A stretch of 64,000 nucleotides of DNA from Kiritimatiellia bacterium (GTDB lineage Bacteria > Verrucomicrobiota > Kiritimatiellia > RFP12 > UBA1067): positions 73,483 to 137,482 of the forward strand of contig JAFWKK010000042.1 of the NCBI GenBank assembly GCA_017514235.1, read 5' to 3'. Below, in pieces: positions 6,638 through 64,000 of the stretch. The notes under the pieces were generated by a model, which saw only the letters and a list, made by a program, of their open reading frames with translations, was not told the DNA's origin and made no database searches. Made by a program: the position numbers and the translations under genes. Positions within the stretch are counted from its first letter, which is position 1. Every line of letters starts with the position of its first letter.

Positions 6638-7561
6638 CGTTTCTGCCGGCGCTAGGGCCGGGCGCAGGGCTAGGCCGGCGAACGCCGTCTGCCGCCTGAC
6701 GCGCATGAGGAGCAGCTTCAACCTGTAAGGACCGGCATGGCGGTCCAGTGATTCCAGAAGGGCTCCGAACGCGAAAGAAATGAATTTAAGCGTCAAGAAG
6801 CGCACTTTCAGGCCGAGCCTGAGCGGCTCGGGCGGCAGGTGCAGTATGTTCCGGCGATAATATGCGAACCAGAACACGTATTGCGGCACGTTGCCGCCGT
6901 AGCCTTTTGCCGTGGCGAAGCGCAATCCCACGCCGGTTAGGTGAAGCACGCACGGGCGCCACCGTCTTGGGGGAATCATCACGTCCCAATCCGGGTCAAT
7001 CATCTTGGCGTCGCCGGCCAGCAGCACGTTCAATGCGTCCTGGTCGGGGTACGGCGGGCAACCGTATGTGCGGAAGAAATCTATCGCACGTGCCGTGAAC
7101 CCGGTTTCGCGCCATTTGCGCAGGTTGATGAGAGCGACGCCGGAGCATGCGTATTCGTGCCCGGGCGGCATGCGCAAGCCGTTTGCGGCGGCCCACCTGT
7201 CGAACTCCATGGCGATTGCGGGGAAGTCTTTCACCCAGCATATCGAGACGGCGTCATCGCGCTCTTTCCACAGTTCCTGCGGATCGCGGAACCACAGCGT
7301 GTCGACGTCCGAGTAGATGATCCAGTCGCAGTCAGGCAGAATCTCCGGCAGGAAGAGCCGCAGGTACGGCAGCTTGGAGCCGTTCCATTCCCGCAGCTGG
7401 AAGCGGTTTGCGAATGGGGCCATGTCGCCGTCGCCGAACTCGTGAAAGACGAGGCGGTTCGGGTCGGCGCAGGCCGACGTCATGCTGTGCCGTGTCGCCA
7501 GCAGCCCGGGACGGTACCGTTCGTTCGCGACGAGCGCGATATGGATTCTGCCGTCGTTCAT
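6626..7561 (-). CDS. glycosyltransferase, GT8-like (LPS-type)
   Basis: minus-strand ORF; N-terminus IHIALVANERY and internal D-x-D-like segment resemble GT8 nucleotide-sugar transferases; C-terminal tail is high-GC, low complexity and may be over-extended. Confidence 0.5.
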   Translation of the reverse strand: MNDGRIHIALVANERYRPGLLATRHSMTSACADPNRLVFHEFGDGDMAPFANRFQLREWNGSKLPYLRLFLPEILPDCDWIIYSDVDTLWFRDPQELWKERDDAVSICWVKDFPAIAMEFDRWAAANGLRMPPGHEYACSGVALINLRKWRETGFTARAIDFFRTYGCPPYPDQDALNVLLAGDAKMIDPDWDVMIPPRRWRPCVLHLTGVGLRFATAKGYGGNVPQYVFWFAYYRRNILHLPPEPLRLGLKVRFLTLKFISFAFGALLESLDRHAGPYRLKLLLMRVRRQTAFAGLALRPALAPAETLKA

Positions 7562-28834: not shown

Positions 28835-28872
28835 TGAGGTATTCGGCTGCATACCCCACGGGCGCGGAGCGT
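28835..28872 (+). repeat. 38-nt conserved leader motif, copy 1 (identical to 45029-45066)
   Basis: TGAGGTATTCGGCTGCATACCCCACGGGCGCGGAGCGT, exact match to copy 2; contains the small hairpin GGTAT-TCGGCTGC-ATACC. Confidence 0.85.
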
Positions 28873-28874
28873 AT

Positions 28875-28932
28875 GCTTAGTTGGAGGTAGGAGTTGGAGT
28901 TGGAGGTAGGAGTTGGAGGTAGGAGTTGGAGG
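28875..28932 (+). repeat. purine-rich tandem array (unit about TTGGAGGTAGGAG, about 4 copies) upstream of four-helix-bundle gene 1
   Basis: direct repeats read from the sequence; roughly complementary to the array at 29305-29435. Confidence 0.85.
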
Positions 28933-29304
28933 ATGGAGGGGCAGGATTTTCAGTACAGGAATTTGATTGTGTGGCAAAAGGCCATGCGGTTCTCTAAAGC
29001 CGTTTATGCGCTGATCAATCAATTCCCCGTAGCAGAGAAGTATGCGCTTTCTGATCAGGTTCGTCGTGCGGCAGTGAGTGTTCCTAGCAACATTGCGGAA
29101 GGATGTGGACGCGCCTCAAATCGTGACTATGCTCATTTCCTGTCGATCGCACGTGGTTCATTGTATGAAACAATGACACAGCTGGAATTGGCACAATCGC
29201 TTGGATACATTGATGCTATCAAAGATATCGAAGAGTTGGCCTCGGAGATAAGTCGTATGCTAACAACATTGATGAAGAAATACACGCCGCTCTCCAAATC
29301 CTAA
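28933..29304 (+). CDS. four-helix-bundle protein (23S rRNA intervening-sequence protein / Avd-like family), copy 1
   Basis: IVWQKAMRFSKAVYALINQFP..EKYALSDQVRRAAVSVPSNIAEGCGRASNRDYAHFLSIARGSLYE..TQLELA is the hallmark of this family; the ORF track extends the start into the repeat array via TTG, and I prefer the ATG at 28933. Confidence 0.8.
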   Translation: MEGQDFQYRNLIVWQKAMRFSKAVYALINQFPVAEKYALSDQVRRAAVSVPSNIAEGCGRASNRDYAHFLSIARGSLYETMTQLELAQSLGYIDAIKDIEELASEISRMLTTLMKKYTPLSKS

Positions 29305-29435
29305 CTCTACCTCTCCCCTCCAACTCCACCTCTCCCCTCCAACTCCACCTCTCCCCTCCAACTCCACCTCTCCCCTCCAACTCCAACTCTCTCCTCCAAC
29401 TCCAACTCCAACTCTTTTCTCCAACTCATCTCCCC
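29305..29435 (+). repeat. pyrimidine-rich tandem array (unit about CTCCACCTCTCCCCTCCAA, about 4 copies, then CTCCAACTC variants) downstream of four-helix-bundle gene 1
   Basis: direct repeats; reverse-complement related to the upstream array (TTGGAGG versus CCTCCAA). Confidence 0.85.
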
Positions 29436-35170: not shown

Positions 35171-36733
35171 ATGTCCCCTAACCGTCGAATCTTCTTGAAC
35201 ATTGTTGCCACGTACGGGCGGAGTTTGTATGCGTTGGTCGTTGGCTTGGTCACTGCAAGGTGGACATTACAGGCTTTGGGAGTTGTTGACTATGGACTTA
35301 TGGGAGTTGTAGGTGGTCTTACTGGGTTTATTTCTTTCTTTAACGGAATCTTGGCGGCTGCTGTCGGTCGGTTTTATGCAATATCGGTTGGCAAGGCGAG
35401 TGTAAAAGGACACGAACTTGAGGGACTGGATGAGTGCCATAAATGGTTTTCCACTGCTGTATTTTTGCACATGCTTGTGCCGACGATTTTAATTGTTGTT
35501 GGCTATCCTGTTGGCGTATGGGCTGTTAGAAACTTTCTAACCATTCCACCTGATCGTGTCTCTGATTGTGTTTGGGTATTTCGCTTTATGTGTGTGTCGT
35601 GTTATATATCAATGTTGACAGTTCCCGTAAATGCGATGTATACGGCCAAACAGTATATTGCCGAATTGACGATTTATTCTGTTGTTACAACGACGCTAAA
35701 TGCACTTTTCTTATATTATATGGTCTCGCATCCAGGCGTATGGCTGGCCAAGTTTATGTTTTGGACTTCGCTTCTGTCCATCGCACCAAATGTGATTATT
35801 TTCTTGCGTGGAGTTTTTCTGTTTAAGGAATGCAGGTTAATTCCCAGGTATCTGTTATCGTGGGCGCGAATCAAGCAGTTGGTATATTTTGTGGGAATGT
35901 GGACCTGCGGTGGTACAGCATGGCTGTTGAGAGTTCAGGGAATCAACATTCTCATTAACAAGTATTTTGGGGCAAAAGTGAATGCGGCTATGGCTATTGC
36001 GAATAGTGTAAATGCGCACACTAGAAGTTTGTCAGGATCCATGCTCGGTGCTTTATATCCTGCCATAACATCTGCCTATGGCGCAGGAGACCTTGAGCGC
36101 ATGCGAGCGTTGGCGTATCGTGCATCCAAACTTTCAGTGCTTTTTGTTTTGATTTTCATGTTGCCCATTGCGTTGGAGTTGGAGGAAGTTCTACGCGTTT
36201 GGCTGATAAACCCGCCTGAATATGTTTATGGGCTGTGTCTTTTGGTCTTTGCGGTAACTATTACTGATCAGATTACTATTGGCCAAATGATGGCAATAAA
36301 TACCAGAGGCAAGATACTTTGGCCCACTGTTTTCCAAAGTGGAAGTCTTCTTATGGGATTCCCACTTGCATGGTTGTTTTGCTGGGTAGGATTTGGGGTG
36401 TATTCTGTGGCGGTCGCATTGTTGATTTCGATGTTCAGCTGTTCGGCCTGGAGGATATGGTTTGCGCGTGGTTTGGTCTCCATGTCTTCTTGGTACTGGA
36501 TAAAGAGAATATTGATACCAGTAGTCCTTTGCGCATTGATTAGCGCGGTAATCGGATGGATGCCTCGTCTGTTCATGCCGCCATCACTTTATCGGATTGT
36601 TGTTGCGGGACTTGTCAGCGACGTGATTCTTCTTGCGTTAGCTTGGCTTGTTTTGCTTGATGGAGACGAACGAGAATTCCTAAGAGGGCGGTTTAGCCTA
36701 TTGTACAGAAACTTAAAGGCGAGAATGAAGTAA
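35171..36733 (+). CDS. polysaccharide biosynthesis protein / Wzx-like flippase, paralog 2
   Basis: MSPNRRIFLNIVATYGRSLY... same N-terminus as the 30055 gene; multi-TM. Confidence 0.65.
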   Translation: MSPNRRIFLNIVATYGRSLYALVVGLVTARWTLQALGVVDYGLMGVVGGLTGFISFFNGILAAAVGRFYAISVGKASVKGHELEGLDECHKWFSTAVFLHMLVPTILIVVGYPVGVWAVRNFLTIPPDRVSDCVWVFRFMCVSCYISMLTVPVNAMYTAKQYIAELTIYSVVTTTLNALFLYYMVSHPGVWLAKFMFWTSLLSIAPNVIIFLRGVFLFKECRLIPRYLLSWARIKQLVYFVGMWTCGGTAWLLRVQGINILINKYFGAKVNAAMAIANSVNAHTRSLSGSMLGALYPAITSAYGAGDLERMRALAYRASKLSVLFVLIFMLPIALELEEVLRVWLINPPEYVYGLCLLVFAVTITDQITIGQMMAINTRGKILWPTVFQSGSLLMGFPLAWLFCWVGFGVYSVAVALLISMFSCSAWRIWFARGLVSMSSWYWIKRILIPVVLCALISAVIGWMPRLFMPPSLYRIVVAGLVSDVILLALAWLVLLDGDEREFLRGRFSLLYRNLKARMK

Positions 36734-42879: not shown

Positions 42880-42957
42880 TGTTTTGTTGTTATGCGCGGA
42901 CATCCGCTGATTGAGAGTTTGGTGTAAGAAGTTTGTAAGTTGGGGAGTGGGGAGTTT

Positions 42958-42974
42958 GAACCACGAAATACACT
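42958..42974 (+). repeat. 17-bp direct repeat TGAACCACGAAATACAC (copy 1; copy 2 at 43422-43438)
   Basis: exact duplicate flanking the GT2 pseudogene fragment. Confidence 0.7.
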
Positions 42975-43125
42975 AAATACACGAAAGAGAAAATCAACCC
43001 CTAGGATTATGTTGCACGGACATAATGTTTTTCGGCATAATATTCGATTCAAAGGCAGAAACGAAGATTAAACACCATTAAATTAATGGCGGTTAAATAA
43101 TGAGGTTTTTGAGTATTGCCGTTTT

Positions 43126-43412
43126 TTTCCATAATCATCCCGGTCTATAACGTCGCGCCCTATCTGCGCGAGTGCCTGAATTCCGTCTTGTCGCAGACGT
43201 TCGCCGATTGGGAGGCGATCTGCGTTGACGATGGTTCGACCAACGGGTTCTGGCTCGATTCTTGATGAATATGCTACATGTGACTGGTGATTCCGTGTCA
43301 TCCACCAGCTCAACGCCGGTGTTAGCGCGGACAGAAATGCCGGCATGTTAAATGCGGTTGGCGAATACATTACATTTCTGGACGGAGATGATGTGTATGA
43401 TCCGGGCGTCAG
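43126..43412 (+). pseudogene. GT2 glycosyltransferase remnant (5' module only, frameshifted, no start codon)
   Basis: nucleotide-level match to the GT2 5' module (PFFSIIIPVYNVAPYLRECLNSVLSQTFADWEAICVDDGST) then frameshift and stop; truncated at the second TGAACCACGAAATACAC repeat. Confidence 0.7.
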
Positions 43413-43421
43413 GGGTCGGTC

Positions 43422-43438
43422 TGAACCACGAAATACAC
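43422..43438 (+). repeat. 17-bp direct repeat TGAACCACGAAATACAC (copy 2)
   Basis: see copy 1. Confidence 0.7.
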
Positions 43439-43519
43439 GAAAAGGGGAAGATCGAGAGTTAGATAATGGCGTAAAATCAGCGATTGACAAGTCGGATTTC
43501 GTTGTGATATAACTCTTGT

Positions 43520-45028: not shown

Positions 45029-45066
45029 TGAGGTATTCGGCTGCATACCCCACGGGCGCGGAGCGT
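45029..45066 (+). repeat. 38-nt conserved leader motif, copy 2
   Basis: exact match to 28835-28872. Confidence 0.85.
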
Positions 45067-45104
45067 CTTGTCAGTAGTCGGGGGTCAGGGGCCAGAGGAT
45101 AGAG
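45067..45104 (+). repeat. purine-rich short array (GGGGGTCAGGGGCCAGAGGATAGAGG) upstream of four-helix-bundle gene 2
   Basis: complementary in character to CCTGACTCC repeats downstream. Confidence 0.55.
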
Positions 45105-45461
45105 GTGGTTAAGACTTATAAAGAGTTAGTGGCTTGGCAAAAGGGGATGTCGCTTGTGAAAGCCGTCTATGCTTTAGTGAAACGGTTCCCAAAAGTTGAG
45201 CAATATCGACTTGTTGACCAGTTGACGCGTGCTGCAGTCAGTGTGCCATCTAACATTGCAGAGGGATTCGGTAGGGCTACCAACAAAGATTTCGCACACT
45301 TCCTGTCGCAGGCTCGAGGCTCGCTGTTTGAAGTAGAGACGCAGTTGTTGATAGCAAAGGATCTTGGATTTGTTGGTGATGTAACGTCAGAGCTTGAACT
45401 ATCTTCCGAACTTGGGAAGATCCTAAATGGTCTCATACGTAAACTACTCCCTGTCCCCTAA
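45105..45461 (+). CDS. four-helix-bundle protein (23S rRNA IVS protein / Avd-like family), copy 2
   Basis: LVAWQKGMSLVKAVYALVKRFPKVEQYRLVDQLTRAAVSVPSNIAEGFGRATNKDFAHFLSQARGSLFEVETQL; GTG start. Confidence 0.8.
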   Translation: MVKTYKELVAWQKGMSLVKAVYALVKRFPKVEQYRLVDQLTRAAVSVPSNIAEGFGRATNKDFAHFLSQARGSLFEVETQLLIAKDLGFVGDVTSELELSSELGKILNGLIRKLLPVP

Positions 45462-45497
45462 CTCCTGACTCCTGTCTCCTGACTCCTGCCCCCTAAA
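45462..45497 (+). repeat. pyrimidine-rich short array (CTCCTGACTCCTGTCTCCTGACTCCTGCCCC) downstream of four-helix-bundle gene 2 and directly before the GT2 start
   Basis: seen directly. Confidence 0.6.
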
Positions 45498-46535
45498 ATG
45501 CCTTTCTTCTCCATCATCATCCCGGTCTACAATGTCGCGCCCTATCTGCGCGAGTGCTTGGACTCTGTCTTGGCGCAGTCATTTGCAGATTGGGAAGCGA
45601 TCTGTGTCGATGACGGTTCGACTGATGATTCAGGCGCGATTCTAGATGAATATGCGGCGAAGGATCCGCGCTTTCATGTTATCCATCAGCAAAATGCAGG
45701 TGTCAGCGCCGCAAGAAACAAGGCGCTTGAAGTCGTTGCAGGGAAATGGTTTCTTTTTCTGGATGGTGATGATTTACTTTATAGCGATGCTCTGGAAGTT
45801 TTTATTCCATATATAAGATATGATGATGTTGATGGGATTCTTGTGCATCCATATACTTCTTCTTGGGATGGGAATGGTGTCCCACAACGAAATTGTGTTG
45901 TCGATGTTCTTGTGAAAGATGCTTCAAAGGAAGATTTATTCATAGGACCGTATGCGGCAAATGGTTTTTCATTTTCGCGTATTTATTCCACAAGAATATT
46001 TAGGCACTTACGTTTTAGGGAAGACATGTCCATGTCGGAAGATGTTTGTTTTTGGTTTGATGCTTTAAGCGTTACTGCGCGGTGGATGATATTGCGTGCG
46101 GAATATTATCTTTATCGTCAACGGGGCGATTCTGTGTGTGGGGAAAACGATCCACATAAATGCGGACAGATTCTGGAATCCGTTTTACATGCGCTTAATG
46201 TAATTGACAAACGGCTTGATGTTTCTAAATCTGCTGGAGCTAGATATTTGAGGCGTTTCCCGTCGTCTCCAAGATATTATATTGGTCTTGCCGTATGCAG
46301 ATATAAAGAACTTACTGATGAGGAATGGGATGATTTGTCGAATAAAGTAAAAGCCATTGATGCTATATGTGGGCGATGGTCATTGGGTGTTTTTGTCAAT
46401 TTATTAATGGCGTTTGCGGTAAATAGACGATTGCGTTTCGTGCTGCCAATATTGCTAAGAATGAGTAATTGCTATGATTGTCTGAGAATTCAAGTTGGTG
46501 GATTGTCACGAAAATTAGGTTTTATAAGAAGATGA
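45498..46535 (+). CDS. family 2 glycosyltransferase (conserved 5' module)
   Basis: FSIIIPVYNVAPYLRECLDSVLAQSFADWEAICVDDGSTDDS. Confidence 0.8.
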   Translation: MPFFSIIIPVYNVAPYLRECLDSVLAQSFADWEAICVDDGSTDDSGAILDEYAAKDPRFHVIHQQNAGVSAARNKALEVVAGKWFLFLDGDDLLYSDALEVFIPYIRYDDVDGILVHPYTSSWDGNGVPQRNCVVDVLVKDASKEDLFIGPYAANGFSFSRIYSTRIFRHLRFREDMSMSEDVCFWFDALSVTARWMILRAEYYLYRQRGDSVCGENDPHKCGQILESVLHALNVIDKRLDVSKSAGARYLRRFPSSPRYYIGLAVCRYKELTDEEWDDLSNKVKAIDAICGRWSLGVFVNLLMAFAVNRRLRFVLPILLRMSNCYDCLRIQVGGLSRKLGFIRR

Positions 46536-47275: not shown

Positions 47276-48343
47276 ATGAAGAGACTGTTGGAGATATCTG
47301 AATATGTTGAGGATGTGAAGCGTGTCGCATCTTTCGATTTGCCGTGGGAGAAACTACGTGATAAGACAATTCTCATAACGGGTGGCACGGGTCTTATCGG
47401 AAGCTTTTTGGTCGATGTGTTAAATGCTGCAAGACTTGATTGCAAGGTATTGTTATTTGGTCGGTCAGAAGAAAGGGCGAAAACTCGTTTCGCTGAATAC
47501 TGGGATAAGGGGTGGATTCATTTTGTGAAGTGGGATTCGAGTGAGGGGTTTGAGAGGTTTGACGAGTTTGAAGAGTTTGAGAAGTTCGATTATATGTTGC
47601 ACCTTGCCAGCAATACACATCCAGTGGCGTACGCAACGGATCCGATTGGCACGATAACGACGAATGTTATTGCGCTCAATAATCTGCTGGCGTTGGCGGC
47701 GGAGAAGTGTGCGACGAGGTTCTTGTTCGCATCTTCAAATGAAATTTACGGAGAGAATCGGGGGGATGTGGAGCTGTTTGATGAGAAGTACTGTGGTTAC
47801 ATAGATTGCAACACGTTGCGGGCAGGGTATCCAGAGTCAAAGCGTTGTGGCGAAGCATTATGTCAGGCGTACATAAGGCAAAAGAACTTGGATTGCGTCA
47901 TTGCGCGTTTGACTCGCACTTATGGACCAACGATTCTGTCGACTGACACCAAGGCCATTAGCCAGTTCTTCAACAACGCACTCAAAGACGAAGACATTGT
48001 CTTGAAGAGCGAAGGGAAGCAATATTATTCTTATCAATATGTTGTAGATTCGGTGTCGGGCCTCATGACTGTGTTGCTTAAGGGTGACTGCGGTGCTGCG
48101 TACAATATCGCCGATGAATCCAGCGACATTACGCTTCGCGATCTTGCCGCGTTGATCGCCAAGCAAGCTGGGCGCAAGGTTGTGTTTGATCTGCCTGATG
48201 CGGTTGAAGCTGCAGGTTTCAGCAAGGCTACAAAGGCTAGGCTGGATGGTGCTCGGTTGCGTGCGCTTGGCTGGTTGCCATCATATGACATTAAAAGCGG
48301 TGTGATGCGAAATTATTGTGTGCTTAAGAAATCTCGGGCATGA
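47276..48343 (+). CDS. NAD-dependent epimerase/dehydratase (extended SDR)
   Basis: ILITGGTGLIGSFLV Rossmann motif and a YxxxK region; about 355 aa. Confidence 0.75.
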   Translation: MKRLLEISEYVEDVKRVASFDLPWEKLRDKTILITGGTGLIGSFLVDVLNAARLDCKVLLFGRSEERAKTRFAEYWDKGWIHFVKWDSSEGFERFDEFEEFEKFDYMLHLASNTHPVAYATDPIGTITTNVIALNNLLALAAEKCATRFLFASSNEIYGENRGDVELFDEKYCGYIDCNTLRAGYPESKRCGEALCQAYIRQKNLDCVIARLTRTYGPTILSTDTKAISQFFNNALKDEDIVLKSEGKQYYSYQYVVDSVSGLMTVLLKGDCGAAYNIADESSDITLRDLAALIAKQAGRKVVFDLPDAVEAAGFSKATKARLDGARLRALGWLPSYDIKSGVMRNYCVLKKSRA

Positions 48344-49093: not shown

Positions 49094-50218
49094 ATGAAGC
49101 GATTTGAGTGCCAGATTTTGGTGACCCGACCATATCTTCCGCCGCTTGACGAGTTTAAGAATGGGCTGGAGGAGGTCTGGTCGAATCAATGGCTTACGAA
49201 TAATGGGCCGATGTTGCAAAGGTTCCAGAAGGAATTGTCGCGGTATCTTGGCGTTCCGGAGACGAATATTGCGTTATTCAACAACGGAACGCTTGCGTTG
49301 GAATTAGGATATTACGTGATGGGTCTTGCTGGCGGTGAAGTCATCACTACGCCGTTTACCTTTGTCGCGACGAGCCATGCGCTTATGCGGATTGGCGCGA
49401 GGCCGGTATTTGCCGATATTGATCCTGAAACGATGTGCCTTGATCCTGCGAAGGCCGAAAAGCTGATAACGCCGCGCACCAAGGCGATTGTGCCCGTGCA
49501 TGTGTACGGGAACGTTTGCGACGTTGAGGGGTTTGAGCGATTGGGAGAGAAGTACGGCGTGAAGATCATTTATGATGCCGCGCATGCGTTTGGGGTGTTT
49601 AGCCGTGTAGAACGTGTAGATCGTGTAGAAAAGAAGAGCATAGGGTTTTGTGGGGACATGAGCATGTTCAGCTTTCATCCCACGAAGTTGTTTCATTCGT
49701 GCGAGGGCGGGTTGTTGGTATTCAAGGACGCGGCGGTTCGGGAAAAGCTTTATGAGCTTCGCAACTTTGCGATTCGAAGTGAAACAGAATGTGTTGACGT
49801 AGGAACGAATGCCAAGATGAATGAGCTTCAGGCGTTGATGGGCATTTGTTGCCTTAGAAAGATGCCTGAATTGCTTGAGTATCGTCAGAAGATTTACGAG
49901 GCATATGAAGAGGTGTTCGCGGATTGCGAAGATGTGAAGCTTGTGCCGCACTCGCAGAACAAGGCGTATGTTCCTGTTTTGTTTAAGAGTTTTGCAATTC
50001 GTGAGCGGGTGTATGCTGAGTTGAAGACGTGCAACGTGTTCTCGCGGCGGTATTTCTATCCGCTCTTGACTGATTTTGCGCCGTATGCGTATGGAAATGG
50101 GAGTTGCCCTATCGCTGAAGACTTGGCTTCCCGAGTGCTGACATTGCCGACATACTACGGATTGCCGCTGGATGATGTGAAGGCGATAGCGGAGAATGTA
50201 AAGGAGATGGTGAAATGA
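49094..50218 (+). CDS. DegT/DnrJ/EryC1/StrS-family sugar aminotransferase (PLP-dependent)
   Basis: full-length match in character; FSFHPTKLF lysine region. Confidence 0.8.
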   Translation: MKRFECQILVTRPYLPPLDEFKNGLEEVWSNQWLTNNGPMLQRFQKELSRYLGVPETNIALFNNGTLALELGYYVMGLAGGEVITTPFTFVATSHALMRIGARPVFADIDPETMCLDPAKAEKLITPRTKAIVPVHVYGNVCDVEGFERLGEKYGVKIIYDAAHAFGVFSRVERVDRVEKKSIGFCGDMSMFSFHPTKLFHSCEGGLLVFKDAAVREKLYELRNFAIRSETECVDVGTNAKMNELQALMGICCLRKMPELLEYRQKIYEAYEEVFADCEDVKLVPHSQNKAYVPVLFKSFAIRERVYAELKTCNVFSRRYFYPLLTDFAPYAYGNGSCPIAEDLASRVLTLPTYYGLPLDDVKAIAENVKEMVK

Positions 50219-59574: not shown

Positions 59575-60867
59575 ATGTTTCGTAGGGTAATTTATCAGGC
59601 AAAGTGGCGCTTGCATCATCCGACGGCGTTCGCACGGTTTGCCGATATTATGGCGAATCTCGAGAAGTCGTCTGGCCAGCTTGCTGCCGAACAGGAAGTG
59701 GCACGGCAGAGAATAGTTCGCCATGCGATGGCCCATACTGTTTTTTACAGGGAGAAATATACGGACGCGGGCTTTGGGTTGTCCGACATCGGCAGACAGG
59801 GGTGGTTCGAGAAGTTGCCGATAGTGACTAAGAATGACCTTCGCGAACGCTTCGCCGATTTCGTCGATACAGATCGGCGGCAGTTCTTGGCTGTCTCGAC
59901 TACCGGCGGTTCTACGGGTGTGCCCACCAAGACAGGCTACGACAGGCGCATTCCCGAAGAAGTTTATTCATGGCGGCTCCAGTCGTGCTACGGCGTCCAT
60001 CCTTGGGACGACCATGCATACGTGTGGCGGGATACGCGGCGTTCGAAGTGGGCGAAGTTGAAGAATGCCGCCGCATGGTGGCCGACGCGCCACCTGAAAC
60101 TCGATGCCACGTTGCTGAGCGACGCTGCGATGGATGAATTTATTGAGAAGTTCAATCGTCTGAAGCCTTGCCTGCTGCAGGGATATGTGGGCGCAGTTTC
60201 GCAGCTTGCGGAATATATGCTCAAGTCAGGCAAGGCCATTGCCTTGTCACCGAAAGTCGTATGGACCACCTCGGCCCCTCTGTCGGAAGTTCAGAGACGC
60301 CTGATTGAGACGGCTTTTGGCGCTCCGGTGTGCGATGAGTACGGTAGCTGCGAGTGCCGCTGGATAGCCTTTCAGCGGCCTGGGCATGAAGGATTGCGCG
60401 TCAATACGGAGCATGTGCATATAGAGTTTTTGCCAGACCAGGGCGGAGATGGGCATGGATATGGTCGGACGCTTTTGACCAATCTTGAAGATACGGTTTT
60501 TCCATTGATCCGCTACGAGAACGGCGACCGTGGCCGTTGGCTTGACTATCCCTACATTGATTCGGTAAAGGGACGGGAAGTGGAGTCGTTTGTCCTCACG
60601 TCGGGGAAAGTGGTCAACGGCGAATACCTCACAACGATCTTCGACGAGTCGCCGGATTTGGTGTATGGCTTTAGGGCCGTACAGCATGCGGATCTTAGCA
60701 TAACGATCGAGTACATTCCGGCGAAGGATGAGGGCAAGGTGCTGGAAGTCCTGCAGAAATTCGCGGACAAGATCGAAGGCGACGCCGTCGTTGACTTCAA
60801 ACGCGTCGACCAAATCTCGCATGACAGAGGCAAGCTTCGCTTTGTAGTGCGGGAAGTGAAAGGTTGA
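59575..60867 (+). CDS. CapK-like adenylate-forming enzyme (phenylacetate-CoA ligase / F390 synthetase family)
   Basis: length and motif pattern (STTGGSTGVPT adenylation motif, C-terminal region) of PaaK/CapK-like proteins in capsule loci. Confidence 0.6.
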   Translation: MFRRVIYQAKWRLHHPTAFARFADIMANLEKSSGQLAAEQEVARQRIVRHAMAHTVFYREKYTDAGFGLSDIGRQGWFEKLPIVTKNDLRERFADFVDTDRRQFLAVSTTGGSTGVPTKTGYDRRIPEEVYSWRLQSCYGVHPWDDHAYVWRDTRRSKWAKLKNAAAWWPTRHLKLDATLLSDAAMDEFIEKFNRLKPCLLQGYVGAVSQLAEYMLKSGKAIALSPKVVWTTSAPLSEVQRRLIETAFGAPVCDEYGSCECRWIAFQRPGHEGLRVNTEHVHIEFLPDQGGDGHGYGRTLLTNLEDTVFPLIRYENGDRGRWLDYPYIDSVKGREVESFVLTSGKVVNGEYLTTIFDESPDLVYGFRAVQHADLSITIEYIPAKDEGKVLEVLQKFADKIEGDAVVDFKRVDQISHDRGKLRFVVREVKG

Positions 60868-60931
60868 GAGGTTCGAGAGGTTTGGGCGGTTTGAGAAGTT
60901 CGAAAGTTCGAGAGTTTGAAAGTTTGAGAGT
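60868..60931 (+). repeat. purine-rich tandem array (GTTYGAGAG units) upstream of four-helix-bundle gene 3
   Basis: GTTGAGAGGTTCGAGAGGTTTGGGCGGTTTGAGAAGTTCGAAAGTTCGAGAGTTTGAAAGTTTGAGAGT; begins at the stop codon of the CapK-like gene. Confidence 0.8.
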
Positions 60932-61321
60932 ATGGCAACAATAAAACGATTCACCGATATCGTTGCGTGGCAAAAGAGCCGCGAGATGGTAAAGCGGATT
61001 TACGAGTTGACTCGGCGTGAGCCATTCTCCAGAGATTGGGGATTGAAGGATCAGATACAGCGAGCTTCAGTAAGCATATGCAGCAACATCGCTGAAGGAT
61101 TTGAACGGAGCGGGGACAAGGAGTTCGTGAATTTTCTCTGGATTGCAAAAGGATCAGTAGGGGAAGTAGCCTCCCAATTGTACAATGCAAAGGATTGCGG
61201 GTACGTTGATGAAGAAGACTTCATTTCGTTGCAAGAAGATCTGAAGTTGTTGAGTGCAATGCTTTATAGCTTAATTCGGTCAATGAAAACTTCATCCTTG
61301 AAAGGTGAGCGATATAAGTAA
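60932..61321 (+). CDS. four-helix-bundle protein (23S rRNA IVS protein / Avd-like family), copy 3
   Basis: IVAWQKSREMVKRIYELT...DQIQRASVSICSNIAEGFERSGDKEFVNFLWIAKGSVGEVASQL. Confidence 0.8.
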   Translation: MATIKRFTDIVAWQKSREMVKRIYELTRREPFSRDWGLKDQIQRASVSICSNIAEGFERSGDKEFVNFLWIAKGSVGEVASQLYNAKDCGYVDEEDFISLQEDLKLLSAMLYSLIRSMKTSSLKGERYK

Positions 61322-61457
61322 CCTTCAAACTTTCAAACTTTCAAACCTTCAAACTTTCAAACTTTCAAACCTTCAAACTCTCAAACTTTCAAACCTTCAA
61401 ACTCTCAAACTTTCAAACCTTTCGAACCTTCAAACCTCCCAAACTTTCCACCCTCCC
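61322..61457 (+). repeat. pyrimidine-rich tandem array (CTTTCAAAC/CTCTCAAAC units, about 14 copies) downstream of four-helix-bundle gene 3
   Basis: reverse-complement relationship to the upstream GTTTGAGAG array. Confidence 0.85.
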
Positions 61458-62921
61458 ATGTTCTCACACCTTTACGATCGCAAGTATCTTTTTAAATGCC
61501 TTTTGTCTATGGCGTTTCTTTTTGGCCTTATGAAGGCGACGGGCGGGTCGGGCTTTGTAATCGTTATCCCAATGGTTTTTTATGGATTGCTGTCCCGCAA
61601 GACGGAGTCGCTTTTCTTCTGGCTTCTGATGTCAGTATGTGCAATTATAGCTAATGGTTATGTGATCCCTAAAAATGCGGTGTTTGCCTGGTCGCAGCGT
61701 GGTCTGATGTTGAGTTTAGGTGTTTGTATGGCCTTGAATGTAATGGCATACCCTAAGCATGCCGTCATGAAACCATATCTTGGAATTATATTCTATATTG
61801 TATTTATGTTTTTCTCTTCTGCACAGGGGTGGTGCCCGCCTATTTCCTTCTTGAAGTTGATTTTGTTCACCGTTATTTATTTCTCTTATTTTGGGGTGGC
61901 GAATCAGGTTGGCATTAATCCAACTGTTTCGAGCAAACATGTGCGCAGTGTAATGCTAGCGGTCTCTCTCCTTTTTGTGGTAGGATCGATCTTGCTTGTT
62001 CCGTTCCCAGGCTTGTCGCAGATGAAGCATGACGACTTTGTTGACAGTCCTCTTGCAACAAGCCTTTTTATGGGAATGACCAACCATTCTCAGTGCCTTG
62101 GGCCGGTTGTATCGTCGATCTCAATTGTGGTCTTTGCTGATCTTCTATTTTCTGTTAGGAAATGGGATCCCCTTTATCTTTTCATCTTGTTTTGTTGCCC
62201 CTATCTTATCTACAAGACATCGAGTCGAACGGGCATGGGTGCCTATGTGCTTGGCATGATGTTTGTGGCGTATATTTTCATGCGTGCGCGGGGTGTAGGG
62301 TCGCGATGGAAATCGCGAGCCTTGACGACGGTAATGATATTTTCATGTGGATTGATTCTTGTTTTAGCATGTTTGCCAAGGGTCCAGAAATCGGCACTGC
62401 GATTTCTGTTGAAGACGACCAGCGAAAGCCCGTCTGCCGTAACAGCAGAAGCGGTGATGAGTACGCGGCAGGCACTTATCGACAGGTCACTTTACTATTT
62501 CCGAAAGAAACCTCTCTTGGGGAATGGTTTTCAAGTGTCGGAAGAGATGTCTAGCCTGAAGTTAAAGGGCGTTGCTTCTGTTTTGTCAGCTCCGATTGAG
62601 AAAGGCGTATGGGTTTCAGCAGTGTTGGAGGAAGGAGGCATCATAGGATGGTTGCTTTTTGTTTGGTTTCTTGTGGTCTGTATCATCACGTCAATCAAGC
62701 GACGAGCCTATATTGGAGCGTCATGCCTTTTTCTGAGCATGCTTACAAATCTTGGAGAATTCACGTTCTTCTCTATGTCATACACTGGTGGTTTCACATG
62801 GGCGATGGTTTTTGTAGGCCTTGCGCTTGACATTAGGAAAATGAAGGATGAGAATGCGGCCATCCAGCGTGAAATGATGATGCGTGAGATGCGAATGCAG
62901 CAAGGAGGGGTCGGCAGGTGA
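61458..62921 (+). CDS. O-antigen polymerase/ligase-like (Wzy/WaaL-type) membrane protein
   Basis: about 10-12 TM helices and a large periplasmic loop; start taken at the ATG after the repeat array, since the ORF track begins inside the repeats. Confidence 0.55.
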   Translation: MFSHLYDRKYLFKCLLSMAFLFGLMKATGGSGFVIVIPMVFYGLLSRKTESLFFWLLMSVCAIIANGYVIPKNAVFAWSQRGLMLSLGVCMALNVMAYPKHAVMKPYLGIIFYIVFMFFSSAQGWCPPISFLKLILFTVIYFSYFGVANQVGINPTVSSKHVRSVMLAVSLLFVVGSILLVPFPGLSQMKHDDFVDSPLATSLFMGMTNHSQCLGPVVSSISIVVFADLLFSVRKWDPLYLFILFCCPYLIYKTSSRTGMGAYVLGMMFVAYIFMRARGVGSRWKSRALTTVMIFSCGLILVLACLPRVQKSALRFLLKTTSESPSAVTAEAVMSTRQALIDRSLYYFRKKPLLGNGFQVSEEMSSLKLKGVASVLSAPIEKGVWVSAVLEEGGIIGWLLFVWFLVVCIITSIKRRAYIGASCLFLSMLTNLGEFTFFSMSYTGGFTWAMVFVGLALDIRKMKDENAAIQREMMMREMRMQQGGVGR

Positions 62922-64000
62922 AGGTCCTGCACGTCATCTCATCTATTCATCGTTCGTCCGGCGGGCCGTCAAGGTCGGTTCAGGGACTGGCGGCCGCAGA
63001 GTGCCGCGCAGGCGTAGATGCCGGAATCTTCACGTTCCGGCATGGCGACAAGCCGTGGGTGGACGGCATTTCGTTCGTTCATTCAGGGGTGGAGATAGAT
63101 TCTGAACTGCTGGAGTTCAAGCCAGACATTGTGCATCTGCACGGACTGTGGAATCGCAGGCTTCATCGTGCTGCGGTCGCTTGCCGAAAGTTGGGGGTTC
63201 CGTATGTCATTGCGCCGCGAGGGATGCTTGAGCCGTGGAGCCTGAAGCAGAAGTGGCTCAAGAAACGGATTGCTCGATTCCTTTACCAGGATAGGGATCT
63301 GCGGTGCGCCGCAGCGCTCCATGCCACGGCAGAGAGCGAAGCGGAGCAGTTTAGGCGCATGGGGTTCAAGAATCCAGTAATCATCAGCCCCAATGGCGTC
63401 AATCCTCCCAACCTCCCACCCACTCTCCCACTCCAACTCAAACCTCCAACTCAAAATCTCCAACTCCAACTAAAAACTCCAACTAACACTAACCTCCAAC
63501 TCCCACTCAAAACTCCAACTCAAACCCTCCAACTCCAACTCAAGACTCCAACTAATACTAAAAGAACCTTGTTCGTGAGCCGGATGCATCCGAAGAAGGG
63601 TGTGATGGAGCTGGTCGAGGCCTGGGGAAGTTTAGTGGCTAGTGCTGAGTGGTTGGTGCGGAACGGTTGGAAGTGTGAGTTGGTGTATACGGTTAGCGGG
63701 GAACTTGAGAAGGGGTATGAGGCGAAGGTAAAGGCGAGGGTTAAGGAGCTGGGGCTGGAGGATAAGTTCATATTTACCGGCGCGCTGAATGACGACGAGA
63801 AGTGGGAGGCGTATGCGAGAGCGGACCTGTTCGTGCTGCCGACCTACAGCGAGAACTTTGGAATAGTGGTTGCCGAGGCGCTTTATGCCGGCGTGCCGGT
63901 AATCACCACAAAGGGCACTCCCTGGCAGGAACTGGAGACCGAGAGTTGCGGTTGGTGGATTGACGTTGGAGAGGATGCGTTGGCTGATGCTTTGACAAAG
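62918..64000 (+). CDS. family 4 glycosyltransferase, 3'-partial, with in-frame repeat insertion
   Basis: GTG start overlapping the upstream stop (GTGA); KVLHVISSIHRSSGGPSRSV...; C-terminal GT4 motifs EXFG (YSENFGIVVAEALYAGVPVI); runs off the window end, so it is absent from the ORF track. Confidence 0.75.
   Translation, partial: MKVLHVISSIHRSSGGPSRSVQGLAAAECRAGVDAGIFTFRHGDKPWVDGISFVHSGVEIDSELLEFKPDIVHLHGLWNRRLHRAAVACRKLGVPYVIAPRGMLEPWSLKQKWLKKRIARFLYQDRDLRCAAALHATAESEAEQFRRMGFKNPVIISPNGVNPPNLPPTLPLQLKPPTQNLQLQLKTPTNTNLQLPLKTPTQTLQLQLKTPTNTKRTLFVSRMHPKKGVMELVEAWGSLVASAEWLVRNGWKCELVYTVSGELEKGYEAKVKARVKELGLEDKFIFTGALNDDEKWEAYARADLFVLPTYSENFGIVVAEALYAGVPVITTKGTPWQELETESCGWWIDVGEDALADALTK
63404..63575 (+). 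repeat. pyrimidine-rich CTCCAACTC-type tandem array embedded in-frame in the GT4 gene
   Basis: translates in the GT4 frame as NLPPTLPLQLKPPTQNLQLQLKTPTNTNLQLPLKTPTQTLQLQLKTPTNTK without stops, between the ISPNGVN and KRTLFVSRMHPKKG domain-boundary motifs. Confidence 0.8.

Follow-up and report, generated by a model that had tools for sequence, protein, structure and literature searches.

We analyzed a 64,000-nt stretch of DNA (the window; contig JAFWKK010000042.1 of assembly GCA_017514235.1, positions 73,483 to 137,482 of the forward strand), and in particular a GT4 glycosyltransferase gene at its end which carries an in-frame array of short repeats between the two domains of the enzyme. This array is probably a translated minisatellite lying in a disordered tether, which has grown by the duplication of its units and is exchanged between alleles by short-tract recombination. 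Its host is a gut or rumen Kiritimatiellae bacterium and the gene lies within a polysaccharide locus. As far as comparison of sequences can tell, the length and sequence of the tether differ between strains, and an on/off switch is not supported. The effect of such variation on catalysis would be small and the array itself is quite possibly neutral in function.

The array holds a single G in its 156 nt (A56 C72 G1 T27) and encodes residues 163-214, which stand between ...VIISPNGVN and KRTLFVSRMHPKKG. A degenerate lead-in is followed by head-to-tail units whose lengths are multiples of three (Table 1). The GT4 frame alone is free of stops across the array, with one to six stops in each of the other five frames. 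Tandem Repeats Finder places the repeats at 63425-63561 with periods of 6, 13, 33, and 69 nt. The 69-nt period comprises 2.0 copies with 88% matches and no indels, therefore the latest event was probably the duplication of a two-unit block. The 6-nt sub-repeats are imperfect (68% matches). With up to one mismatch allowed, CTCCAACTCCAA is found 18 times in the window, where 0.38 would be expected: seven of the 18 are in the GT4 array, 10 are in the arms of a four-helix-bundle element described below (element 1) and the remaining one is within an open reading frame (ORF) at 35171-36733, which matches MatE weakly and is probably the second flippase gene. A first-pass annotation of the window had placed the array in frame at the inter-domain linker, from 63404 to 63575. 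The codons, the Pfam boundaries and the position in a structural model all agree with this placement, and the start is correct, however, the array ends at 63559, since 63560-63575 encodes the conserved KRTLFV of the C-terminal domain. The frame was also rightly described as unbroken, with a full-length protein of 406 residues on record (P0001, 100% identity to the window translation). Three near-identical alleles (P0001, P0122, and P0121, which is MBR3222454.1) have the same array with 1-5 residue differences elsewhere, and an independent assembly (L088) carries identical array DNA, so that the array is neither an assembly artefact nor a broken frame.

The GT4 gene begins at a GTG codon which overlaps the stop codon of an upstream Wzy-like gene. 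Its product matches Glyco_trans_4_4 (PF13579) at residues 15-160 (65.7 bits, cut-off 29.7) and Glycos_transf_1 (PF00534) at residues 207-359 (98.4 bits, cut-off 26.4) in Pfam. The EX7E motif is intact (SENFGIVVAE), with E312 and E320 invariant among 30 orthologues (alignment A1). An AlphaFold2 model was built on 30 orthologues, with a mean predicted local distance difference test score (pLDDT) of 71 and a predicted template modeling score (pTM) of 0.54. Residues 166-211 have a pLDDT below 50 and no secondary structure in this model, and they lie between the last strand of the N-terminal domain (160-162) and the first strand of the C-terminal domain (215-221), so the array falls in a low-confidence segment between domains, where the first-pass annotation had expected a model to put it. 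Foldseek matches to MshA, BshA, WaaG, PimA, and SPS at E values of 1e-11 to 1e-15 identify a GT-B fold; their template modeling scores reach only ~0.4, an effect of how the domains are arranged and of the low confidence at the end of the N-terminal domain. Taken together, the position in the model, the GT-B matches and the intact EX7E motif point to an inter-domain tether, for which the model is supportive and not decisive.

Pro/Thr-rich linkers join the modules of secreted carbohydrate-active enzymes and are often glycosylated. The GT4 tether is similar in being of low complexity, rich in proline and threonine, flexible and variable in length between folded domains, however, it joins the halves of one catalytic GT-B fold in a cytoplasmic enzyme, and a DNA repeat which is also present outside genes determines its sequence.

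The linker was surveyed in 166 loci from many phyla by measuring how far the conserved PNGVN motif lies from the conserved (K/R)RxLF motif. All 166 lengths are divisible by three and 39-45 nt is the commonest length (13-15 residues; 102 loci), which places the linker of the window among the longest surveyed. The first-pass annotation had proposed orthologues as a check on the inserted length, and 52 residues against the usual 13-15 bear it out. More distant Kiritimatiellia have ordinary linkers of 13-18 residues. The closest relatives, in the gut Kiritimatiellae clade, form a set of 120 proteins with 59-86% identity overall and nearly invariant flanks. In all 120 the frame runs unbroken across the linker, from the conserved motif of the N domain to that of the C domain, and their linkers range from 12 to 258 residues and fall into several repeat-like classes. 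These classes, given here with their counts and, where DNA was read, the DNA repeat behind them, are FEPRNTQNTR (25; GAACCACGAAATACACGAAA), LQLQLKTPT (24; CTCCAACTCC), FSRVERVE (17; (CGTGTAGAA)n), SLVVSRQ (14; (AGTCGTT)n), LELQLKTRT (7; CTCGAACTCCAACTC) and smaller groups such as GERG and GVRSQES, the latter encoded by (AGTCAGG)n.

The nearest relatives (N domain 90-93% identical) are all of the LQLQLKTPT class and all nearly G-free. Copy number differs between related strains and species in the manner of a variable number tandem repeat, with one unit in L086, two in L081, and four in the window, L084 and L085. The linker of many more remote orthologues (64-70% overall identity) also holds a single unit (STLQLQLKTPTDPD). 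The seed is therefore of long standing at this linker, and the expansion to four units is specific to the lineage of the window. An ancestral linker, named at first pass as the finding that would speak against an insertion, is thus seen in part, in the old single unit but not in the expansion. It was likewise too much to say that the repeats had "colonized" a coding sequence, as transfer could have run either way.

Linker class has almost no dependence on the phylogeny of the N or the C domain. The nearest neighbor has the same class in 34 of 108 cases by the N domain and in 21 of 108 by the C domain, with 16% expected by chance. In seven pairs of alleles both domains reach 90% identity or more, and the linkers of four of these pairs are unrelated or largely rearranged. 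For example, L170 and L171 have no substitutions in alignment columns 1-385 and one after column 700, with 31 of 32 substitutions in columns 386-700. Every indel between them falls in columns 386-740, one being a 21-nt repeat unit at a second variable site in the C-terminal domain (site 2). In the pair L172 and L173, 88 of 99 substitutions are in columns 351-700 and both array sites switch class together. These two near-identical pairs indicate replacement patches of ~300-350 nt centered on the linker, as would be left by short-tract homologous recombination, and unit slippage appears to be superimposed on this recombination between alleles. Site 2 carries arrays or an in-frame hairpin in other alleles and is swapped jointly with the linker. 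A search for a donor paralogue found no second copy of the GT4 gene within +/-10 kb in any locus. The first-pass suggestion that the arrays expand or spread at the DNA level therefore holds at the linker, given relatives with one, two and four units and ~300-nt patches between near-identical alleles. Its further suggestion of length- or phase-variable enzymes is borne out for length, which differs between strains and species, but not for phase, with 166 of 166 loci in frame.

We propose that tandem duplication turned a single 33-nt LQLQLKTPTxx unit first into two units and later into four, the final step being the copying of the 69-nt double unit, with replication slippage or unequal crossing-over as the likely growth process. 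As a disordered surface loop tolerates changes of length and sequence, in-frame and stop-free products, and only these, would survive. Comparison shows that units are both gained and lost at the linker in gut Kiritimatiellae. Additionally, patches of ~300-350 nt that cover the linker and site 2, about 70 nt downstream, are replaced by homologous recombination between alleles, in which the nearly invariant coding flanks would act as homology arms.

Several observations sit uneasily with a minisatellite in a permissive tether. The full length of the array can pair with the downstream coding region at -112.8 kcal/mol, which a neutral model does not predict. The structural model is only moderately confident by its pLDDT and pTM, and the end of its N-terminal domain is of low confidence as well. 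Identical linkers of 14-24 residues occur in proteins that are only 75-80% identical in their domains, and the divergence of linker DNA within a class is similar to that of the upstream flank (about 80-88% vs. 80-90% identity, from few pairs). This conservation within classes implies that the linker is not simply free-drifting junk, and either constraint or frequent conversion is needed to explain it. Finally, the patches come from short-read metagenome assemblies, in which chimeras of co-existing strains may conceivably have formed, however, a chimeric assembly would need alleles identical on both sides of the patch and therefore implies natural mosaics again.

Table 1. Features of the glycosyltransferase gene, the intervening sequence (IVS)-like elements and the second coding array in the window.
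Feature	Coordinates	Strand	Content or basis
GT4 (GT-B fold) glycosyltransferase gene	62918..64000, past window end	+	GTG start, Pfam, EX7E, Foldseek
N-terminal Rossmann-like domain, coding region	62918..63403	+	Ends with conserved ...VIISPNGVN
In-frame, almost G-free array, 156 nt	63404..63559	+	52-aa tether, PPNLPPT + 4 x (LQLQLKTPTxx)
Degenerate array lead-in, 21 nt	63404..63424	+	PPNLPPT; codon reading
Array units 1 and 2 (33 + 36 nt)	63425..63493	+	LPLQLKPPTQN, LQLQLKTPTNTN; first 69-nt double-unit copy
Array units 3 and 4 (33 + 33 nt)	63494..63559	+	LQLPLKTPTQT, LQLQLKTPTNT; second double-unit copy
C-terminal domain start	63560..64000	+	KRTLFVSRMHPKKG ... SENFGIVVAE ...; cut by window end
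Second variable site (site 2)	63626..63676	+	GSLVASAEWLVRNGWKC; G/T-rich, weakly repetitive; Tandem Repeats Finder 63634-63670, period 14
IVS-like element 1	28879..29414	+	TIGR02436; fold z = -5.35
Element 1 purine-rich arm	28879-28932	+	GGAGTTGGAGGTA...; repeats
Element 1 four-helix-bundle gene	28933-29304	+	PF05635 / TIGR02436
Element 1 complementary arm	29305-29414	+	CTCCAACTCC...; repeats
IVS-like element 2	45067-45495		Four-helix-bundle gene 45105-45461
IVS-like element 3	60861-61448		Four-helix-bundle gene 60932-61321
Second in-frame array	47542..47586	+	(TGAGAGGTT)5, within SDR epimerase gene 47276-48343

The repeats of the GT4 array are also found outside the gene. The IVSs of 23S rRNA consist of an ORF (S23p) in the loop of a stem which is cut by RNase III (PMC4990558). 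Three genes of the window, assigned to PF05635 / TIGR02436 and encoding four-helix bundles, have this architecture, with the ORF in the loop of a long inverted-flank stem, however, they reside in polysaccharide operons and the arms of their stems are short-period tandem arrays. Each gene is bracketed by a purine-rich array upstream and a complementary array downstream, and the repeat unit is specific to each element. Elements 1 and 3 fold into long stems (z = -5.3). The same architecture is seen with other repeat units in Lentisphaerae and Bacteroidota loci (L011, L014). To our knowledge, the origin and mobility of IVS-like four-helix-bundle genes have gone unexplained since these were first discovered in 23S rRNA.

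The GT4 array shares 41 of its 148 9-mers (28%) with the arms of element 1, compared with 2.9% in control segments, and the common words derive mainly from the (CTCCAA)n hexamer. Clusters of the CTCCAA motif were found only at this GT4 site and element 1 in 2.2 Mb of loci. The first-pass annotation had assigned the array to the same repeat family as all the IVS-like elements. This is right for element 1, the sole element with an arm unit that matches the GT4 array, but there is no one family for all, as each element has its own unit. The array is thus akin to the relatives of the 23S rRNA IVSs in its unit, however, it is not itself an IVS-like element since it has one arm only and no ORF: neither a four-helix-bundle ORF in or beside it nor inverted flanking arms were found. 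When the 52-aa linker peptide was compared with a protein database, 15 candidates were returned and none was scored, with low-complexity masking the likely cause.

The second in-frame array encodes SSEGFERFDEFEEFEKFD and adds about 8 residues to a loop of the epimerase in comparison with its homologues. Its unit is that of the element 3 arms, with 19 of 52 9-mers in common vs. 2.9% in controls. Two such coincidences of a coding array with an element arm in one locus are unlikely to arise by chance (a rough estimate is well below 1%) and therefore point to a common genome-specific repertoire of short-period repeats, from which, we infer, coding arrays and element arms both originate. A possible further in-frame array, (CGTGTAGAA)3 at 49604-49630 in an aminotransferase gene, was left as a probable chance occurrence.

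Given these shared repeats, the array could instead be a selfish element. Rickettsia palindromic elements (RPEs) are found in dozens of unrelated genes, with a palindromic structure and a conserved consensus for the family, and they provide a precedent for palindromic elements in frame (PMC10969869). The GT4 array would then be the arm or remnant of a gene-less counterpart of the IVS-like elements, inserted in frame by chance, an origin we regard as unlikely. Like RPEs and other miniature inverted-repeat transposable elements, the array is repetitive DNA of ~100-150 nt tolerated in frame at a surface-exposed position of an enzyme, and sequences related to it are also found outside genes, with repeat words common to the array and the element 1 arms and with the four-helix-bundle genes of several phyla all bracketed by such arrays. 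Furthermore, two-armed array hairpins occur in frame at exactly the same GT4 linker in L033 (10486-10643) and L061 (2942-3120), both from Verrucomicrobia, and also in L154, L158, and L042/L132. Those of L033 and L061 have a common conserved core and arms that differ compensatorily (CAGAGGG/CCCTCTG vs. TCAGAGGTCAG/CTGACCTC). An in-frame hairpin with the arms CACAGAGG...CCTCTGTG is also present at site 2 in L085 and L086. However, the array of the window lacks a second, complementary arm and, with 1 G in 156 nt, is unable to pair with itself. It is built of tandem 33-nt units which form a 1-2-4 copy series in relatives, and within the 2.2 Mb of loci CTCCAA arrays are almost confined to the GT4 site and element 1 and not scattered across many genes. 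Nor was any GT4 found split by a four-helix-bundle gene in the linker among the 166 loci, in which matches to the N- and C-domains up to 1500 nt apart were considered. Longer distances between these matches in some loci were rejected as split genes, as they are due to upstream tandem glycosyltransferases. A closer match to the RPEs is provided by the two-armed linker hairpins of L033, L061, L154, and L158.

Inserts without repeats are found at this position as well. P0096 (L169:10487-11260), P0087, and P0114 carry non-repetitive in-frame inserts of 77-258 residues in the same linker, which share PLTE(V/A)V...(H/K)(R/H)Q(V/A)AAG, in the form PLTEVVETVAKHQAAGFSPSTT in P0096 and P0114. The 258-aa insert of P0096 matches no Pfam family, and its DNA has no arrays and resembles ordinary coding sequence. 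The hairpins and the P0096 insert mark the linker as a permissive site and keep the selfish-element explanation alive. The GT4 linker is accordingly, in the alleles compared, a recurrent landing place of a permissive kind.

A more ambitious possibility is that the arrays are the active ends of an unrecognized class of elements in the Planctomycetes-Verrucomicrobia-Chlamydiae (PVC) group. Such elements would be hairpins with arrays as their arms, some with an Avd-like four-helix-bundle gene in the loop and others without one. They would repeatedly plant in-frame cassettes in the permissive loops of polysaccharide enzymes and stimulate recombination nearby, and the GT4 linker and site 2 would form a targeted hotspot for the diversification of surface-glycan enzymes in gut Kiritimatiellae and not a passive minisatellite. 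We consider this quite unlikely. The match of the four-helix-bundle proteins to Avd is far below the cut-off (26 vs. 80 bits). The array was rejected as the target of a diversity-generating retroelement, with no reverse-transcriptase domain in any window ORF scanned.

The pairing of the array with the downstream region raises the question of a function in RNA. The array, made almost wholly of C, A and U, would pair with the G-rich, C-poor mRNA of the first part of the C domain into a hairpin of ~400 nt, with a loop encoding KRTLFVSRMHPKK, which could slow ribosomes at the domain boundary, alter mRNA stability or make an RNase III site in the manner of the IVS-like stems. The best duplex with the downstream 439 nt comprises 117 pairs (63404-63560 with 63598-63810) and is far more stable than those of 150 other same-strand 439-nt segments of the locus (average -58.9, standard deviation 12, minimum -90.7). 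The fold of the whole region has a z of -2.0, and in another allele, L116, the arrays at the linker and at a third site are complementary to each other. On the other hand, a z of -2.0 against dinucleotide shuffles is a small deviation, and all orthologues have a downstream region rich in G and poor in C (G 0.28-0.43, C 0.08-0.26), with a product rich in E, K, G, V, and W. The G-rich linker classes (SLVVSR, GVRSQ, RVE) pair worse than their reverse complements would. As pairing is not conserved across alleles it is probably a by-product of the composition of this array class, and an RNA-level function is improbable. A scan of the whole window against Rfam at gathering thresholds gave no matches.

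Variation of the tether could also be adaptive at the level of the protein. In Helicobacter pylori, the alpha-1,3-fucosyltransferases FutA and FutB have C-terminal 21-nt heptad repeats. These form a structured domain for dimerization or as a "ruler", and their effect on the fucosylation of the O-antigen has been demonstrated, and futA and futB also carry a C-tract (PMC2583950). The GT4 case is similar in that in-frame tandem repeats are found in a surface-glycan glycosyltransferase, with a copy number that depends on the strain and changes through slippage and recombination between gene copies or alleles. By analogy, the GT4 tether might tune domain closure, oligomerization or acceptor reach and so change the glycan, with diversifying selection driving the swapping of cassettes. 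The location of the gene in a variable surface-polysaccharide locus, the patches centered on the linker in two independent near-identical pairs and the conservation of linker classes at the amino-acid level across divergent backbones are all consistent with this. However, the GT4 tether is inter-domain and disordered, with repeat units of 33 nt, and entire sequence classes are exchanged at the site. The classes are also unrelated in sequence and composition (LQLQLKTPT, RVERVE, EPRNTQNTR, SLVVSRQ), and the tolerance of inserts of up to 258 residues suggests a site that is permissive and not tuned, in a tether predicted to be disordered. Adaptive variation of the tether is thus very unlikely to be the explanation.

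Simple-sequence contingency loci are well known from the phase-variable glycosyltransferases of Haemophilus, Neisseria, and Campylobacter. The GT4 array resembles these in that its repeats fall within the coding sequence of a glycosyltransferase from a variable surface-polysaccharide locus, and sub-periods of 6 and 13 nt are present whose slippage could shift the frame and switch the enzyme on or off, however, such a switch is extremely improbable given that none of 166 loci is out of frame, that the units which vary are 33, 36, 69, and 21 nt long, that three near-identical alleles and an independent assembly all carry an identical array, and that the sub-repeats are too imperfect to favor slippage.

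In-frame repeats in glycosyltransferases are already known, and the array differs from those of FutA and FutB and from RPEs in its position, its structure and the swapping of classes. What is unusual is that in a whole clade of uncultured gut bacteria one structurally permissive spot of a conserved enzyme serves as a swap-in cassette, that the cassettes are made of the same short repeats as the stems around IVS-like four-helix-bundle genes, and that near-identical alleles differ almost only in a repeat-centered patch of ~300 nt. If the arrays drive recombination, they would represent a mechanism which diversifies surface-polysaccharide enzymes and would offer a handle on the spread of IVS-like elements. 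If they do not, they provide a natural experiment on the tolerance of a GT-B tether from 12 to 258 residues.

A number of further observations were made on the GT4 alleles. The palindrome at site 2 of L085 (~7050-7170) and L086, CACAGAGGCACAGAGG ... CCTCTGTGACTCTGTG, encodes ETQRHRGTEEGLNGNSEPLSLCDSVLKE in frame. In other alleles (P0008, P0037, P0096), the TQRHRGTE-type peptide is seen again, at the linker and at the C-terminus. Three in-frame arrays are present in the single GT4 allele of L116 (115-215, 290-330), of which the linker has CTCGAACTCCAACTC, site 2 has ~90 nt of (AGGAGTYAGG)n and the third site has GGAGTTGGAGAATGGAGTTGGAGAGG.

Other observations concern the IVS-like elements and their surroundings. 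An exact 37-nt repeat, GAGGTATTCGGCTGCATACCCCACGGGCGCGGAGCGT, stands at 28836-28872 and 45030-45066, each time just upstream of the purine-rich arm of an element, with no matches expected by chance. The second copy is preceded by a TGGTATAAT-like -10 box. This repeat has no Rfam match and is absent from the 173 loci examined, and it may be a leader element of polysaccharide operons. At 61305-61457 the long Wzy-like ORF begins inside the downstream arm of element 3, with a spurious N-terminus (SNLQTFKLSNLQTFKL...), and the true start is likely the ATG at 61458. L085 (4473-4871) and L086 (5458-5850) have one gene each, PDDEXK_3 or four-helix-bundle, at the same position between MFS transporter and PEP-mutase genes, and these two kinds of gene appear to be interchangeable in such loci.

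At 42940-42995 and 43100-43450, the polysaccharide locus also contains a pseudogene, a 5' fragment of a GT2 gene which repeats the beginning of the GT2 gene at 45498. Its borders are formed by GAACCACGAAATACAC(G/T)AAA motifs, and the FEPRNTQNTR class of linkers in GT4 orthologues is encoded by this same DNA, therefore array-type sequences also mark a rearrangement junction. GC content falls sharply near ~29000, from ~64% in core genes, which include exosortase, priming transferase, type II secretion system ATPase, PBP, PGI, and GH28 genes, to ~47% across the 35-kb polysaccharide locus, where the coding strand has a strong positive GC skew.

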